Part shown: in pieces, positions 1-5,487 of the stretch
Position numbering within the stretch: position 1 is the stretch's first letter
Layout of the letters: each line of letters opens with the position of its first letter
IMG/VR virus record: IMGVR_UViG_2703719347_000005
Span: 1 to 26,614 of that record
Reading direction: 5' to 3' (one strand)
Length of the DNA stretch: 26,614 nt
Source of the DNA: a virus
Taxonomy: Duplodnaviria; Heunggongvirae; Uroviricota; Caudoviricetes
Notes under the pieces: generated by a model
The model's database searches: none
Told to the model about the DNA's origin: nothing
The model's input: the letters and a program-made list of their open reading frames with translations, nothing else
Program-made: the position numbers and the translations under genes

Positions 1-405
1 ATGGATCAGGTCGTTGTTTTTCAAAAGATGTTTGAGCAAGTGAGAAAAGAGCAAAACTTCTCCTGGTTTTATTCAGAATTAAAACATCACCGTATTGCAC
101 ATTACATTTATTATCTGGCTACGGATAACATCAGAATTATTACTCACGATGATACGGTTTTGTTATTAAGAGGAACCAGGAACCTGTTAAAAGTTAGTAC
201 GACCAAGAACCCTGCTAAAATAAAAGAGGCCGCATTGCTTCATATTTGCGGAAAATCTACATTTCGGGAATACTGTTCAACACTGGCAGGCGCGGGCGTT
301 TTCCGGTGGGTTACTGATGTTAATCATAACAAACGCAGTTACTACGCCATTGATAATACGCTTTTATATATTGAAGATGTAGAAAATAATAAACCATTAA
401 TCTAG
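1..405 (+). CDS. ycgX: Hypothetical 134-aa protein, YcgX-like (DUF1398-type) chromosomal flank gene
   Basis: Complete 405-nt ORF starting at window position 1 in AT-rich DNA. Its length, and its ~700-bp spacing from a 107-aa ORF and an icd 3' fragment, match the ycgX-iraM-icdC arrangement I recall for E. coli K-12. Identification is from memory, not a search. Confidence 0.45.
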   Translation: MDQVVVFQKMFEQVRKEQNFSWFYSELKHHRIAHYIYYLATDNIRIITHDDTVLLLRGTRNLLKVSTTKNPAKIKEAALLHICGKSTFREYCSTLAGAGVFRWVTDVNHNKRSYYAIDNTLLYIEDVENNKPLI

Positions 406-611
406 CTAAAGTTGGATACTTAAGAAATGCTTCATAATTCAGTAAGGCATTAGCATAATGGAAATAAAAGTGCAGAGACTATCTCTATGGATGATTAATA
501 CTGTCTTTTTATTGTCACCCATAAATAATCACCAGACTAATACTATCAACTTGATATTTGAAATGTGATCACTTGACTTTTGATACGTTATTTTATAACG
601 GTTAACATATT

Positions 612-662
612 TATAAAAACAACGGCCGTGCCACACGTCCGTTTCAATACTTAACGCACATG
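612..662 (-). repeat. Copy 1 of a ~50-bp hairpin-containing element; near-duplicate of the icd terminator region at 1478-1527
   Basis: Direct repeat of 1478-1527 at roughly 45 of 52 positions. Contains imperfect hairpin AACGGCCGTG/CACGTCCGTT followed on the minus strand by a T-rich run (revcomp of ttataaaaac). Confidence 0.5.
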
Positions 663-1019
663 TATTTTGGTTTAGTCATCATCCGGTTATATGTATTTTA
701 GCCAGGAACAGGTTAAATCATTCCTATATAACTCAAAAATTGAAACCTTATTCTCATGTCATGCTTATATTCATTATTATCGTTATATAAAAAGGCAACC
801 ATAATGTTTAGCAAATTGGCACAAAGTAGCATAAAGGCTATGTTTTAATTACAGGATGTTCAGTCATTTGAATGTATAACATTATAGCTAAACAAATCTA
901 AAACGAAGTCAATAATTTATTGCTTTCACAAAATCTCATTTTGTTTAACATCCATTGAGATTCCTTGCTTTAAATTTTATTTTATATAAGCCATCATTTT
1001 AATTAATTTATTTTTTTGA

Positions 1020-1029
1020 GGGGGGGGGG
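1020..1029. repeat. G10 homopolymeric tract upstream of the iraM-like ORF
   Basis: Ten consecutive G, preceded by T7 and followed immediately by TAATAT (1030-1035); ~80 bp upstream of the ATG at 1107. Confidence 0.9.
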
Positions 1030-1106
1030 TAATATACTCATATGCAAAATCAAGAAATAAACATCCTAATGAACCATATTAAATACCGTGGGATAAGACA
1101 TAACAA

Positions 1107-1430
1107 ATGAAGTGGATAGTAATTGACACGGTAATTCAACCTACATGTGGTATATCTTTTTCAGCCATATGGGGTAATATGAAAATGATCATCTGGTATC
1201 AATCTACTATATTTCTCCCTCCTGGCAGTATATTTACACCGGTTAAGTCTGGTATTATCCTTAAGGATAAAGAATATCCTATTACTATTTATCACATCGC
1301 ACCATTCAACAAGGATTTATGGAGTTTACTCAAAAGCAGTCAAGAGTGTCCTCCAGGAGAAAGCAAAATAACAAATAAATGTTTACATAATAGTTGCATT
1401 ATAAAAATATGCCCATATGGGCTCAAGTAA
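1107..1430 (+). CDS. iraM: Anti-adaptor protein IraM-like (107 aa)
   Basis: 107-aa ORF in AT-rich DNA ~100 bp from the icd fragment. Size and position match iraM (ycgW) next to icdC in E. coli K-12, and the N-terminus ([12 protein letters not shown]...) agrees with my recollection of IraM. Unverified by search. Confidence 0.55.
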
Positions 1431-1475
1431 TGGGCTTCATATAAATATGCTCGATATGCTATTAATAATATCCAC

Positions 1476-1527
1476 ATAAATAAAACAACGGGCGTGTTAT
1501 ACGCCCGTTTCAATATTTAACACATGG
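1476..1527 (-). terminator. Intrinsic terminator downstream of the icd 3' end (copy 2 of the repeated element)
   Basis: Perfect hairpin AACGGGCGT-gttat-ACGCCCGTT (1487-1509) followed on the minus strand by a GTTTTATTT run; lies just 3' of the icd stop codon (1533-1535). Confidence 0.6.
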
Positions 1528-1532
1528 AGAGA

Positions 1533-1692
1533 TTACATGTTTTCGATGATCGCTTCACCAAACTCTGAACATTTCAGCAGCTTAGCGCCTTCCATCAGAC
1601 GTTCGAAGTCATAAGTTACGGTCTTGGCATTGATTGCGCCTTCCATACCTTTAACAATCAGGTCAGCCGCTTCAGTCCAACCCATATGGCGC
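1533..1692 (-). pseudogene. icd: 3'-terminal fragment of the isocitrate dehydrogenase gene (icdC-like), prophage attachment-site duplication
   Basis: Minus-strand translation reads ...[53 protein letters not shown], matching the Icd C-terminus. Homology to icd stops abruptly near 1692, with an in-frame stop just upstream. Confidence 0.85.
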
Positions 1693-1995
1693 AGCAATAT
1701 CTACGCCATAAATTCTTAAGAGACTGATTTTATTATTTATTTAACCAATGCATCGAATTTTTATTGCCTTAAACTACATTGTTTAACTTGTTGATTTAGA
1801 TAATTTTAAGCTTCGTTTTGGGGAATAAATTATCGCCTTTGACCCAAAACCTATCGGCCATTACAACGTGGCGCCAGGGACTAAAGCTTTGCTCCTGAGC
1901 TAACGCGACGAGCAGTTGTACCTCGACCCGGTTCACTGGGTTACGCGCCAGGGTGGTGGGACAAACCGCCATTGATTAATGCGAAGTACTGATAA

Positions 1996-2029
1996 TATAA
2001 AAAATAAAAACCGGGATAGAGTATCCCGG
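1996..2029 (-). terminator. Rho-independent terminator of the 147-aa cargo ORF
   Basis: Hairpin CCGGGATA-gag-TATCCCGG (2011-2029), followed on the minus strand by T-tract TTTTTATTTTTT, 8 bp after the stop at 2037-2039. Confidence 0.6.
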
Positions 2030-2036
2030 CTCAAAG

Positions 2037-2480
2037 TTAGTGCACCGTAAGCTTTGATGGATTATCAGAGATGTCGAATGAAAACTCATCCCCATCTTTA
2101 TTGAAGCTGAAAGAATCAACATTATTTGTCTTAACGGACACTAAATCACCTAAAGGCCCATATACGCAAGTTGCCGTTCCACCGTTAGTAAACAACACTT
2201 CCTTGGTCACACCGGATACATTGGTAATTGTATTTACAGAAACCACGTTTGCTAAATTTTTTGGATAAGCATATTTGATTGACGAATAGTTGATGGTGAG
2301 CACGGTTCCACTATTGCTAATGGCAGCTCGATGGCCCCCATTCATCTCAGCCACCATACTCCCGTCTGGATAATAAGTCACTTTATGCCCATTTTGTTCA
2401 ATAACTTTTTTCCCGTCGGAATACTCAGTTACTGTATTAATACCCAACTGAAAAACTTTCGGTTGTTCATTATCTGCCAT
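2037..2480 (-). CDS. Hypothetical protein (147 aa), prophage cargo near the attachment site
   Basis: Uninterrupted ORF with its own terminator. No signal peptide or recognisable motif; Gly/Asn/Thr/Val-rich, beta-rich appearance. Confidence 0.5.
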   Translation of the reverse strand: MADNEQPKVFQLGINTVTEYSDGKKVIEQNGHKVTYYPDGSMVAEMNGGHRAAISNSGTVLTINYSSIKYAYPKNLANVVSVNTITNVSGVTKEVLFTNGGTATCVYGPLGDLVSVKTNNVDSFSFNKDGDEFSFDISDNPSKLTVH

Positions 2481-2666
2481 TTAATTCCCCTTTTTTTCTC
2501 CTGAAGAAACCCCATCAACCTTTACTTACTTTGTTAATATACACAAATATTTTTATAAATCCGCAGCCTAGATCAAATAAATGCTCATTGTTTTCAGCTG
2601 AGCCCTATCGAACTAATACAGAAATGAACTAAACGAATAAAATTTTTCTATTCTAGAAAATTGATA

Positions 2667-3932
2667 CTACTTAACCTGTAACAGGTCGGAGTATCTTGTA
2701 GTATAGCAAGGTGAAAGCATTTCCCGCTTCATCTGCCAGGCCGTTTGGATCCCCTGCCCTGCAAAATACAGCGTTCCCCTTCCGTCTTTCGCATTGAGAT
2801 GGTCGAGTACTTCCATCAGTTTCTCGCTATTCCGCCGTGGCACGTTATCATCAAACAAGTTTAGCTGGGCCACCCCCTGACTGTAGAAATCCCCCAGCAT
2901 CACTCCGGCTTTCTGGTAGCGATACCCGTCTCGCCAGATTGCATCGAGACATTCCGTCGCCGCTGTGATTATGTCCCGACTGTCCTGGGTCGGGGTCAAT
3001 AGTTTCACTGATGCACTATTGCCGTAGTACGGCTCATTCAGAGCAAATGGGCTGGTTTTGACGAATGCAGAGATAAAGCGGCAGTACTGATGCTCACCAC
3101 GGAGTTTCTCCGCGGCACGGGATGCGTATAAGCATATCGCCTGGCGCATCTCTTCGTAGGTGGAAATCCGCTGCCCAAAGCTGCGACTACAGACAATCTC
3201 CTGCTTTACCGGCGCGAACTCCTCAAGACCGAGACATGGCTCTCCGCGTAGCTCCCGCACGGTTCGCTCCAGTACCACATTAAAATGCTTCCGGATAAAA
3301 CGGATATCGGTATCCGCCAGTTGCAGTACAGTTTTAATCCCCATGGCCTCCAGTTTTTTACTGATGCGGCGCCCGACGCCCCAGACCTCATCCACCGGAA
3401 GCAAAGCCATCAACTTCCTCTGTCTTTCCAGGTTCGACAGATCCACCACGCCTCCGGTCTGCCGCTGCCACTGTTTCGCGGCGTGATTGGCCAGCTTCGC
3501 CAGGGTTTTAGTCTGGGCTATGCCGACGCCGACCGTTAGGTGTGTCCTGCGCAGAACCGTCTCGCGAATTTCCCTGCCAAAGTCGGTAAGGTCGCGACAA
3601 TTCCGAACTCCTGTCAGGTCGCAAAATGCCTCATCAATACTGTAAATTTCGCAGCGTGGAGAGAGTTCCTCCAGCGTTGTCATCACTCGGTTGGACATAT
3701 CGGCATAAAGCTCATAGTTGCTGCTAAACGCGATAATACCGTGCCGGCGAAACACGTCCTTTTGCTTGAAATAAGGCTCACCCATTTTGACGAAGGGCTT
3801 CGCTTCTGGCGAGCGGGCGATCACACAGCCGTCGTTGTTTGACAGAACGACCACCGGACGCCCTTTCAGGTCAGGACGAAATACGGTCTCGCACGATGCA
3901 TAAAATGAATTCACATCACAAAGCGCAAACAT
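2667..3932 (-). CDS. umuC: Translesion DNA polymerase V catalytic subunit UmuC (Y-family polymerase)
   Basis: Starts MFALCDVNSFYASCE with the SIDEAFCDLTG catalytic motif, ~421 aa. ATG is at 3930-3932, one nt after the umuD stop. The ORF-track 5' extension to 3992 is rejected. Confidence 0.9.
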   Translation of the reverse strand: MFALCDVNSFYASCETVFRPDLKGRPVVVLSNNDGCVIARSPEAKPFVKMGEPYFKQKDVFRRHGIIAFSSNYELYADMSNRVMTTLEELSPRCEIYSIDEAFCDLTGVRNCRDLTDFGREIRETVLRRTHLTVGVGIAQTKTLAKLANHAAKQWQRQTGGVVDLSNLERQRKLMALLPVDEVWGVGRRISKKLEAMGIKTVLQLADTDIRFIRKHFNVVLERTVRELRGEPCLGLEEFAPVKQEIVCSRSFGQRISTYEEMRQAICLYASRAAEKLRGEHQYCRFISAFVKTSPFALNEPYYGNSASVKLLTPTQDSRDIITAATECLDAIWRDGYRYQKAGVMLGDFYSQGVAQLNLFDDNVPRRNSEKLMEVLDHLNAKDGRGTLYFAGQGIQTAWQMKREMLSPCYTTRYSDLLQVK

Positions 3933-3933
3933 C

Positions 3934-4353
3934 TTAGCCAGCTGATTTAATGATGTACGTAACCACCCCGAACACGTCGAGAGTGTCCTCACTACCGACG
4001 ACTATTGGCGAATATGCAGGGTTCATTGGGTTAAGCTGAACCCGCGGATGCAGTTGCAGCTTCTTAACGGTGAATTCCCCATCCACAGCAGCAATAACGA
4101 TATCGCCATGAACTGCTGTTCTTGAGCTATCCACGACCAGAAGATCACCTTCCCCTATGCCTGCGTCTTTCATGCTGTCGCCGGCGGCTTTGACAAAATA
4201 CGTCGCACTTGGGTGGTTAACGAGCAACTCGTTCAGATCAATACGTTGCTCAACATAATCCTGCGCTGGACTAGGAAAGCCGCACTGCACAAGGTCACTG
4301 TACAACGGGAGCAGCATGATCTGGCGTAACTCAACGGGCGTGTAGAACTGCAT
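3934..4353 (-). CDS. umuD: UmuD, LexA-like self-cleaving accessory subunit of polymerase V
   Basis: 139 aa from ATG 4351-4353 ([13 protein letters not shown]...). Conserved Cys-Gly cleavage site (LVQCGFPSP), Ser (GDSMKD) and Lys (TVKKLQL) present. Confidence 0.9.
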
Positions 4354-4372
4354 AATAAACTCGCTCACAAAA

Positions 4373-4392
4373 TACTGTTTTTATATACAGTA
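4373..4392. promoter_or_regulatory. LexA (SOS) box upstream of umuD
   Basis: TACTGTTTTTATATACAGTA: canonical CTGT-N8-ACAG palindrome, 20 bp upstream of the umuD start codon. Confidence 0.8.
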
Positions 4393-4567
4393 GTTTTATT
4401 CGCTAATCTAATCAATAGAGGTTTTAACTATCAATCAGGAACACAGAGGGGGGGGAAACCAGTCACCTTTGAGCCCCTGATATTGGTTTCACTTAGTGAT
4501 TATGTTGTCTATATGCCAGCTTTGAACTATCTTTTCTCAAAACCTGCTACTGCAAAATGGATATAAG

Positions 4568-4693
4568 ATGTCACAGACGGACTTGCTGATTGTTGTTTTT
4601 ACGCTGGGCATTTTAGCCTTTGGCTATTCCATATGGTTCATTTCGAACAGAATACTCTGCTCAATATTTCATAGACTTACAAAGAATATATGA
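4568..4693 (+). CDS. Small hydrophobic ORF (41 aa; MSQTDLLIVVFTLGILAFGYSIWFISNRILCSIFHRLTKNI), putative small membrane protein
   Basis: ATG-initiated ORF below the ORF-track cutoff with one predicted transmembrane helix. Divergent from umuD and on the same strand as the terminator at 4900-4934. Weak RBS. Confidence 0.25.
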   Translation: MSQTDLLIVVFTLGILAFGYSIWFISNRILCSIFHRLTKNI

Positions 4694-4816
4694 ATTGGGA
4701 TGGTATAGACCAAAATTCATGGTCCTTGCTCCTCGACGTCGGAAGGTACTTACAGATCATCTTCGCTCTTAACCTATCACATCGGCACCTACTCCATGAT
4801 GTAACAGCTCAGACCA

Positions 4817-4934
4817 GAAATATCTGGAAGCTTTAGGCATCTTCTTGGAAGATAGACGAGCGCAAAGACGCACACAGCAATGATGTTATGTAGTATTTTC
4901 CCCTTGAGTGTGCCTGCTCAAGGGGATTTTTTAT
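4817..4934 (+). repeat. Direct repeat copy 1 (~118 bp), homologous to 7965-8079, ending in an intrinsic terminator
   Basis: Shared GAAATATCTGGAA, a 22-bp identical core GCGCAAAGACGCACACAGCAAT (4860-4881 and 8008-8029), and a terminator hairpin with conserved loop. Confidence 0.6.
4900..4934 (+). terminator. Rho-independent terminator (plus strand) overlapping the 3' end of the invertase gene
   Basis: CCCCTTGAG-tgtgcctg-CTCAAGGGG followed by ATTTTTTAT. The minus-strand version has no U-tract, so it is not the invertase terminator. Confidence 0.6.
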
Positions 4935-5487
4935 CGCCGCATTGTACCGGCAAATTTTTGTAAATAGTCTTCACATCTACGCCTATCACATCTGCGATCT
5001 GTTGCCGAGTAGCGCCGTTCTCCAGCATTCTGCGGCACCGCTCCACCACTTCTTCAGTCATTACCCGGCGGCGGCCGCCGACTCTCCCCTGCTCCCTCGC
5101 TGCGGCTAACCCGGCTCGGGTACGCTCCACTATCAGCTCGCGCTCCATTTCTGCCAGGGCGCTCATGACGTGGAAGAAGAATCGCCCTGCTGGCGTCGAA
5201 GTGTCGATCGAGTCGGTAAGGCTGCGGAAATTCACCCCACGCGCCTGCAACTCTGACACGAGCGTAATCAGATCGCGCACGCTGCGGCCCAGCCGATCCA
5301 GTTTCCAGACCACCAGCACATCACCCGGGCGGAGCCGTCGCAGCGCTCGCTTCAAACCTGGCCGCCGGGCATTCTTCCCGCTGGCCATATCCTCGAAAAC
5401 CAGCTCACATTCTGCGCGGATCAGCGCGTTTTTCTGTAAATCGAGGTTTTGATCCCCGGTTGATACCCTCGCATAGCCAATCAGCAC
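4918..5487 (-). CDS. Serine DNA invertase, Gin/Hin/Pin/Cin family
   Basis: MLIGYARVSTGDQNLDLQ...VVWKLDRLGRS...FRSLTDSIDTSTPAGRFFFHVMSALAEMERELIVERT closely matches Gin/Pin over the catalytic domain. GTG start at 5485-5487 with SD AAGGAG 7 nt upstream. C-terminal ~45 aa diverge from what I recall of Gin/Pin. Confidence 0.9.
   Translation of the reverse strand: MLIGYARVSTGDQNLDLQKNALIRAECELVFEDMASGKNARRPGLKRALRRLRPGDVLVVWKLDRLGRSVRDLITLVSELQARGVNFRSLTDSIDTSTPAGRFFFHVMSALAEMERELIVERTRAGLAAAREQGRVGGRRRVMTEEVVERCRRMLENGATRQQIADVIGVDVKTIYKNLPVQCGDKKSP

Follow-up and report, generated by a model that had tools for sequence, protein, structure and literature searches.

A direct repeat of the icd terminator brackets iraM in Escherichia coli and probably marks an old lambdoid integration

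Introduction

The DNA analysed here, 26,614 nt from IMG/VR virus record IMGVR_UViG_2703719347_000005 (positions 1 to 26,614; hereafter the window), carries near its first base the gene iraM, set in an AT-rich block between two directly repeated copies of the terminator of icd, which we call T1 (copy 1) and T2 (copy 2). IraM is one of three characterised anti-adaptors that stabilise RpoS in Escherichia coli K-12. A reading of the window made from its letters alone (the sequence-only reading) had suggested that T1 is the relic of an attachment-site duplication from an older integration at icd that delivered iraM, and had offered a coincidental palindromic element as the alternative. Four lines of evidence support the former proposal: a single-copy site in genomes that lack iraM, a terminator and icd end carried by phages, a rare haplotype with an icd stub and an e14-type end, and relatives of IraM in prophages.

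Parts of this picture were already known, as far as passages of two earlier papers go. The gene icd is the attachment site of the prophage e14 and of phage 21, which carry a replacement icd end (PMC12803456). The passages on IraL and iraM in Hryckowian et al. (2014, PMC4045071) describe iraM as horizontally acquired, place K-12 iraM 'on the e14 prophage', and report IraL, an IraM homologue of 58.9% identity on a horizontally acquired island of the uropathogenic E. coli (UPEC) strain CFT073, which lacks iraM; those passages make no mention of flanking repeats.

Results

The window runs in the reverse orientation relative to K-12, and its genes were annotated from E. coli strain 98227, which is 100% identical to it over positions 1-1800. 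It opens on the plus strand with ycgX (1-405; DUF1398 by Pfam) and ymgL (458-568; YmgL by Pfam), both part of a flank that is kept in every haplotype retaining T1 or a single terminator. The left flank of T1 (575-608, no strand assigned), T1 itself (616-664, minus strand) and the bracketed block (665-1481, plus strand) follow. The block ends at T2 (1482-1530, minus strand), whose stem-loop lies at 1487-1509 and is followed by a minus-strand T-run. Beyond T2 is a displaced 3' fragment of icd (1533-1700, minus strand, 168 bp), an icdC-like pseudogene in strain 98227 with a 54-aa open reading frame (ORF) that matches the C-terminus of Icd. A resident prophage with umuDC-like and tail genes starts from about 1698-1702, and homology to genomes with intact icd stops at 1696-1703. 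T2 and the icd fragment are thus the junction left by the resident prophage, and intact icd lies beyond the window. Copy 2 had been described as lying just 3' of icd; icd sequence does adjoin it, but as this displaced fragment and not as the intact gene.

The bracketed block is the AT-rich segment of about 0.8 kb that had been noted around iraM: it measures 817 bp, with a GC content of 30.4% as against 50% for icd and 49% for bluR. It contains iraM (1107-1430, plus strand), which encodes the RssB anti-adaptor of 107 aa and is annotated as such in strain 98227, and ymgK (804-848, plus strand), a 14-aa ORF that RefSeq annotates in identical or near-identical strains. Between 405 and 1107 there is no ORF of at least 40 aa on either strand, and T1 therefore has no minus-strand gene to terminate, as had been claimed. 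An Rfam scan of positions 1-3000 returned sub-threshold noise only.

We found that positions 616-658 and 1482-1524 form a direct repeat of 43 nt, of which 36 are identical (84%), at a spacing of 866. With a 2-nt gap the repeat extends to 664 and 1529, a few bases short of the icd stop codon; a gapped alignment of 612-664 with 1478-1529 has 41 identities among its 54 columns, and the additional ones come from CACATG past the 2-nt indel. Two copies in the same orientation therefore lie where the sequence-only reading had put them, although its figure of about 45 identical positions in 52 was slightly generous. At the local base composition, the probability of at least 36 matches in 43 is about 3e-14, and about 1e-5 such pairs are expected per window; the best of 20 shuffles of bases 1-3500 reached 29 of 43. 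A chance origin of the match is excluded. When window 606-670 was compared by blastn with 5,426 complete E. coli genomes, it matched a median of 2 and a maximum of 4 places per genome (5,402 genomes), and every copy inspected adjoins icd or an icd fragment, or occupies the T1 position.

The two copies differ in strength. T2 has the form of an intrinsic terminator, a GC-rich hairpin followed by a T-run, and T1 has it only weakly. A terminator scan found in T2 a 9-bp stem with 6 GC pairs and the tail GTTTTATTTA; T2 folds at -20.7 kcal/mol on the minus strand (z -4.0) and -18.2 on the plus strand (z -4.5), and its hairpin is identical to phage-side copies and to those at sites without iraM (empty sites). 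Judged by this structure, T2 is predicted to terminate icd, here its fragment, and it faces the 3' end of iraM from 51 nt away. In T1 the stem is mismatched and the scan detected only 5 bp of it, while the folds (-13.4 kcal/mol and z -0.55 on the minus strand, -9.7 and z -1.2 on the plus strand) are no better than those of shuffled sequences. A hairpin had been proposed for both copies; it is strong in T2, but T1 no longer forms a good one. T1 lies downstream of ycgX-ymgL and is weak on both strands in this haplotype, and we see a hint only that plus-strand termination of ycgX-ymgL is all that is still selected there. The T1 copies of the XH993/Shigella type (locus L005, 1510-1552) and of the type C haplotype described below (locus L041, 7709-7751) form a 10-bp plus-strand stem by way of G-U pairs (z -2.1 and -2.7, respectively); in the XH993 type the stem is broken on the minus strand.

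When we compared the window with attachment regions of phages that use icd, a terminator plus icd' segment of the phage 21/lambda-like kind proved homologous to window 1480-1700. This interval, which opens at the left edge of the repeat and reaches 165 bp into icd, has matches in 30 phage records (phage 21, 4A7, ev017, 1H12 and others). The phage 21 record has the order xis, int, three attP arm sites, terminator and an 'ICDH-like' pseudogene. A prophage of O157:H7 has xis-int, the hairpin and icd, with its late genes on the strand opposite int; this prophage carries no iraM gene. On the far side of the icd prophage of O157:H7 ATCC 43890 (locus L056, 36-49 kb) lie insertion sequence (IS) elements, ompT and minE, and icdC, iraM, ycgX and bluRF were neither matched nor annotated in that region. 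In K-12 (NC_000913.3), e14 occupies 1196209-1211412, icdC 1211413-1211577 and iraM 1211680-1212003. The annotation thus ends e14 before icdC and iraM and puts iraM outside e14; iraM is also present in strains that have an intact icd and no prophage.

A rare and deeply diverged arrangement of the locus, type C, was reached through a ycgX variant of 89% identity and occurs in 19 genomes. Its order is ycgX, (ymgL-like, T1), a ymgB/ariR-like gene, iraM (80% nucleotide identity), trkG, IS fragments, a 455-aa ORF, T2 and icd. In the long form of type C (17 genomes with the T1 and stub region of locus L041 over at least 80% of its length), the T1 orthologue (L041 7709-7751) reads AATACAACGGGCGTGTTATATGCCCGTT-CAATACTTAA. 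The T1 copies of both haplotypes share CAATACTTAA; T2, the phage copies and most empty-site copies have CAATATTTAA, from which KN93 deviates. Type C T1 is followed by GTTAACATATTCTTGAT, and the end of icd is ATTACATATTCTTGATGATCGC: a run of 13 nt is identical in the two and lies equally far from the hairpin in both, a result that 2 of 2000 shuffles reach. This stub keeps the icd stop codon and the last 4-5 codons. By BLAST, about 65 nt (L041 7709-7773) align with the hairpin plus the end of the icd coding sequence at an identity of about 82-84% and an E of about 1e-7; the band of 80-90% identity holds about 1900 records, and the matches listed are again hairpin plus icd coding end. The presence of an icd stub beside type C T1 indicates that T1 once carried an icd 3' end.

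At the other border of the type C island, the 38 nt to the left of T2 (L041 13985-14022) read TTTTGATAAAATTTTGATAACCGTTAGCAGGCTAACAA and agree with the e14 end at icd in K-12 at 37 of 38 positions by hand count, within a BLAST alignment of 83.6% over 146 nt. Given the icd stub and this e14-type end, the type C island has a truncated junction on its outer side and one of e14 type on its inner side; no recognisable integrase was seen in the island. The left flank of T2 in K-12 and the window has no similarity to the element-end sequence, and we rejected extended homology to the left of T2 there. The flank left of T1 in the window (575-608) resembles the e14-type end that precedes T2 in type C, with the same hairpin offset and a local alignment score of 25 that none of 2000 shuffles reached. 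Either e14-type elements captured host flank, or 575-608 is the end of a still older e14-type relic that left ycgX. The same flank also stands to the left of the single hairpin in empty sites.

By MAFFT and blastn the window is colinear with type C over ycgX (87%), the ymgL region plus T1, 660-982 (74%) and 1102-1468 (80%), and the homology runs flush up to T1. Three pieces of type C are absent from the window: the stub with its surroundings, about 205 nt that directly follow T1; about 480 nt with the ymgB-like gene; and the segment from trkG to the e14-type end. Only the terminator and 3' untranslated region (UTR) are repeated at T1 in the window, whereas the type C copy also has the end codons of icd. 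What the repeat preserves of the duplicated region is its distal end, the terminator; the crossover core used by phage 21 and e14 lies inside icd and is missing beside T1. At 1037-1059 (plus strand) the window retains CATATGCAAAATCAAGAAATAA, the opening ~24 nt of a ymgB/ariR-like gene of which type C and a further arrangement, type D, have an intact version. By blastn, positions 328-666 of the type D locus L054 correspond to window 711-1059 and 1146-1498 to window 1104-1459, and the ymgB-like ORF (Pfam YmgB) spans L054 642-902 and L041 8346-8606. Since about 480 nt were deleted here, the region upstream of iraM is in part the scar of a deletion. Just upstream of this gene remnant, at 1019-1029, stand ten consecutive G residues.

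Type D is known from two short metagenome contigs, L054 and L055 (Logan SRR13871025 and ERR4405726). Its order is the end of bluR, the block, the ymgB-like gene, iraM (71% identity) and an IS3 orfA remnant, with ycgX, ymgL and T1 deleted; the bluR end is only 77% identical to that of E. coli. Together, these arrangements suggest progressive, lineage-specific decay of one inserted element.

The relatives of IraM point to phages. IraM matches phrog_4407 (E 4e-51); a Pfam scan gave no IraM match, and a precomputed table lists PF11183 (PmrD). A protein search found named IraM relatives only in Escherichia. Six of the seven IraM variants that we traced (53-73% identical to the window protein) lie in lambdoid prophages, between the antiterminator gene Q and the holin gene and antisense to the late genes, some of them directly beside stxAB, and 46 phage records, mostly Stx2 phages, encode an IraM-type gene. 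If the int end of the element lay at T2, as it does in phage 21, e14 and the O157 prophage, then its late genes would be on the minus strand and an iraM-type gene on the plus strand, as observed. In tblastx comparisons with prophage iraM loci, homology was confined to the coding region.

We found that 1,037 of the 5,426 complete genomes (about 19%) have ycgX, ymgL, the left flank, one hairpin and the icd 3' end in an uninterrupted row, with no iraM; genomes without iraM thus have a single hairpin copy at the site. Among them are B2 reference and uropathogenic strains, the type strain ATCC 11775, and UPEC132, and NRG 857C gives the same partial-coverage pattern as the iraM-less genomes. A K-12-type filled locus is present in 3,844 genomes (about 71%). 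Recombination between T1 and T2 would yield exactly the single-hairpin product that is observed. In the 612 nt between the start of ycgX and the hairpin, the divergence among empty and filled E. coli types is 2-4%, on a near-star tree, and that of type C is 18-20%. A second empty lineage, EC21Z-144, is 3.3% different from the B2 type on this flank. At its empty site, two tandem IS200C copies sit exactly at the edge of the hairpin T-run (locus L003, 3617-5038); strain MEW likewise has IS200C at the T-run edge of the icd terminator. The hairpin loop of EC21Z-144, ATAAC, is the reverse complement of the usual GTTAT. In UPEC132, the hairpin and the downstream stretch read as those of phage 21 over the stretch compared. 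A BluR search of genome contigs reached E. coli/Shigella and no other Escherichia species, besides Citrobacter, Klebsiella, Kluyvera and others, and outside E. coli/Shigella bluR was not near icd, ycgX or iraM.

The neighbour of the block, ycgX, also has phage relatives. In lambdoid prophages, genes related to ycgX (DUF1398, phrog_413) follow the lysis genes, on the strand opposite the late operon (locus L015, 6001-6405; L056, 11613-12023), and one of them, ybcV, belongs to an O157 prophage integrated at icd. The orientation of ycgX and its order relative to iraM and icd match the lambdoid layout. Relatives in E. albertii and Escherichia sp. E10V10 are elsewhere, in a prophage and near fliDST. 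To the left of window base 1, the bluR-ycgX intergenic region (locus L001, 1306-1418) bears a faint colinear likeness to hairpin, UTR and icd end, ACAACAGCGT ... CCGTTGCAAAAT ... CACTCTGTACATATCACAG, which 43 of 2000 shuffles reach for the K-12 type and 712 of 2000 for type C. This trace is possibly a third, older scar, or else chance.

On the other side of the locus, the resident prophage opens with the motif TTTTGGGGAATA, which resembles the arm-site consensus of phage 21 (window 1698-1860). Its first part (2037-5487) holds an umuD/umuC-like pair (2667-4368, minus strand), a degraded gene for an SOS-response peptidase, and a recombinase gene; many of its protein accessions appear to be Klebsiella-like.

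Discussion

Our results indicate that T1 and T2 are probably the surviving distal parts of a direct duplication made when a lambdoid element of the phage 21/e14 kind, carrying an iraM-type gene, integrated at icd. Elements of this kind bring their own copy of the last 165 bp of icd plus the terminator, and this one would have integrated into the icd 3' end by a single crossover. Because such an element carries its own icd end, one copy would stay on the working icd (now T2) and the other would be pushed outward (now T1, the outer scar of the old integration). The iraM-type gene would have been an extra, host-affecting gene, of the sort that extant lambdoid phages have, antisense to their late operon, in the slot from Q to the lysis genes. 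Deletions would then have removed all but iraM and about 440 bp upstream of it, so that the block would be the remnant of the element, and the haplotype of the window would also have lost the icd coding part at T1 and the element end at T2. T2 presumably still works as a terminator where icd and iraM converge, while T1 decays. The two copies could also mediate loss of the block, which would be the likeliest origin of the iraM-less site of B2 type. One event would suffice for the K-12-type and type C haplotypes, with iraM arriving as part of the element.

Several known systems resemble this one in part. Like e14, for which K-12 has the order icd ... e14 ... icdC, the proposed element would have integrated at the 3' end of icd, supplied a replacement icd end with its terminator, displaced the host copy and left direct repeats; the T2 flank of type C is, moreover, nearly identical to the e14 end of K-12. 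The relic described here is reduced to 49 bp of the outer copy and 0.8 kb of cargo, whereas e14 still has int/xis, 15 kb of genes and a complete icdC of 165 bp; iraM lies beyond icdC, outside e14. In the attP region of phage 21, homology to the chromosome runs from the outer edge of the terminator to 165 bp inside icd, and that edge coincides with the left edge of T1 and T2; however, none of the phage 21 arm sites (YYTTCCCCAAAA) was seen beside T1 or T2 in the window, and phage 21 has no iraM. The traced IraM variants sit at the stx position, the slot for extra genes that lambdoid phages have from Q to the lysis cassette, and are antisense to the late operon, whereas chromosomal iraM has no phage gene beside it and the DNA upstream of it has no phage match. 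The absence of iraM that the IraL paper gives for CFT073 agrees with an empty site of the B2 type. Contrary to the placement in the iraM passages of that paper, K-12 iraM is in a separate, older remnant next to e14.

A number of observations weigh against an origin by phage integration. The block itself (665-1481) has no ORF for an integrase or excisionase, no YYTTCCCCAAAA arm site and no icd coding remnant beside T1, and the case for the window rests on the rarer type C haplotype. We found no extant icd-integrating phage that carries iraM, the O157 icd prophage included. The 447 bp upstream of iraM gave no match by blastn against 50,697 phage records, and the IraM of the window is hardly closer to that of type C (72%) than to a Stx-phage variant (70%). 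In type C, trkG stands between iraM and the int end, an order that does not simply follow that of lambda, and type C could stack two separate relics. The direction of change, moreover, would be deduced by haplotype parsimony within E. coli, on a tree that gives no clear root among its types.

Other origins of the bracket fit these data less well. Being short, palindromic and rich in GC within AT-rich intergenic DNA, T1 could be taken for an interspersed element of the repetitive extragenic palindromic (REP) kind, or for a chance or convergent terminator unrelated to icd; this was the alternative offered in the sequence-only reading. Such an element, or a bacterial interspersed mosaic element, would be expected at tens to hundreds of places per genome, and the copy number and context that we found, two places at the median and all inspected ones tied to icd or T1, refute this explanation for practical purposes. 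The likeness of T1 to T2 is also not confined to the stem but takes in the loop and the 3' UTR, and icd codons as well in type C, and Rfam gave no match above noise. Somewhat more can be said for a local event with no phage at all, in which the icd terminator was duplicated in tandem or by slippage and iraM was later inserted or imported by homologous recombination: the block of the window holds no structural or integration gene of a phage, and its upstream region has no phage match. We nevertheless consider it very improbable, since tandem duplication leaves the e14-type end at type C T2 unexplained and does not account for a duplicated unit that runs into icd coding sequence, as phage-made duplications do, or for the other traced IraM relatives being prophage genes.

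A further question is in which direction the locus changed. Type C is a deeply diverged haplotype and carries T1 and the block with homologous junctions; the common ancestor most simply had both, which makes the empty sites secondary losses. By this parsimony argument, drawn from one short region, we favour, a little less firmly than the phage origin itself, the view that the iraM-less sites arose by deletion between the repeats and are not pre-insertion sites. The divergence of EC21Z-144 suggests more than one loss. The same kind of event could be read in reverse, with the single-hairpin B2 site as the ancestral attB, the block entering non-B2 lineages only, and the type C element being independent or imported. 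That icd is a busy integration site makes repeated insertions plausible; the hairpin of the empty site is wholly T2-like and no T1/T2 chimera, and two sites speak for B2 as the outermost E. coli type when the tree is rooted with type C. Three sites speak against a basal position of B2, however, and type C, the outgroup on the left-flank tree, has T1. The K-12 type and type C are homologous flush against T1 and across the block, which argues for one insertion and one set of junctions, and the second empty lineage points to recurrent loss. Phage copies regularly replace the hairpin that adjoins icd, as the phage 21 version in UPEC132 illustrates, and a T2-like single hairpin is therefore uninformative about direction. 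We regard the reversed order of events as unlikely.

A wider extension of the phage origin can be put forward only tentatively, and we hold it to be doubtful. The DNA downstream of icd might be a layered record of successive lambdoid integrations, each of which pushed 'icd 3' end plus terminator' outward and left one extra gene behind. Read outward from icd, the layers would be the resident prophage (T2 plus icdC), the iraM layer closed by T1, and an older ycgX layer. Hints of this last layer are the lambdoid-type DUF1398 gene in matching orientation, the e14-like flank left of T1, and the faint terminator and icd trace between bluR and ycgX. If the layered reading were true, the repeats would act as deletion switches that remove whole layers and give the iraM-plus/iraM-minus polymorphism among E. 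coli lineages, and the one role for which T1 may have been retained since the duplication would be to end plus-strand transcripts of ycgX-ymgL.

Read in this way, the locus adds a new case to a known class, that of decayed prophages whose attachment-site duplication survives as a scar. In a limited search of the literature, neither the T1/T2 repeat nor the type C stub and e14-type end came up, and nor did the prophage location of IraM genes as evidence of how iraM arrived at this site. An origin by phage integration would give iraM a concrete source, as an extra gene of a phage left behind by an old integration at icd. The present analysis also corrects the placement of iraM on e14. A block bracketed by direct repeats offers a simple structural reason for the presence/absence polymorphism of iraM among strains. 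Terminator copies of this kind can date and delimit prophage remnants that are otherwise unrecognisable at a busy attachment site. The relevance of these findings would be mostly for the control of RpoS and for the evolution of the E. coli genome.

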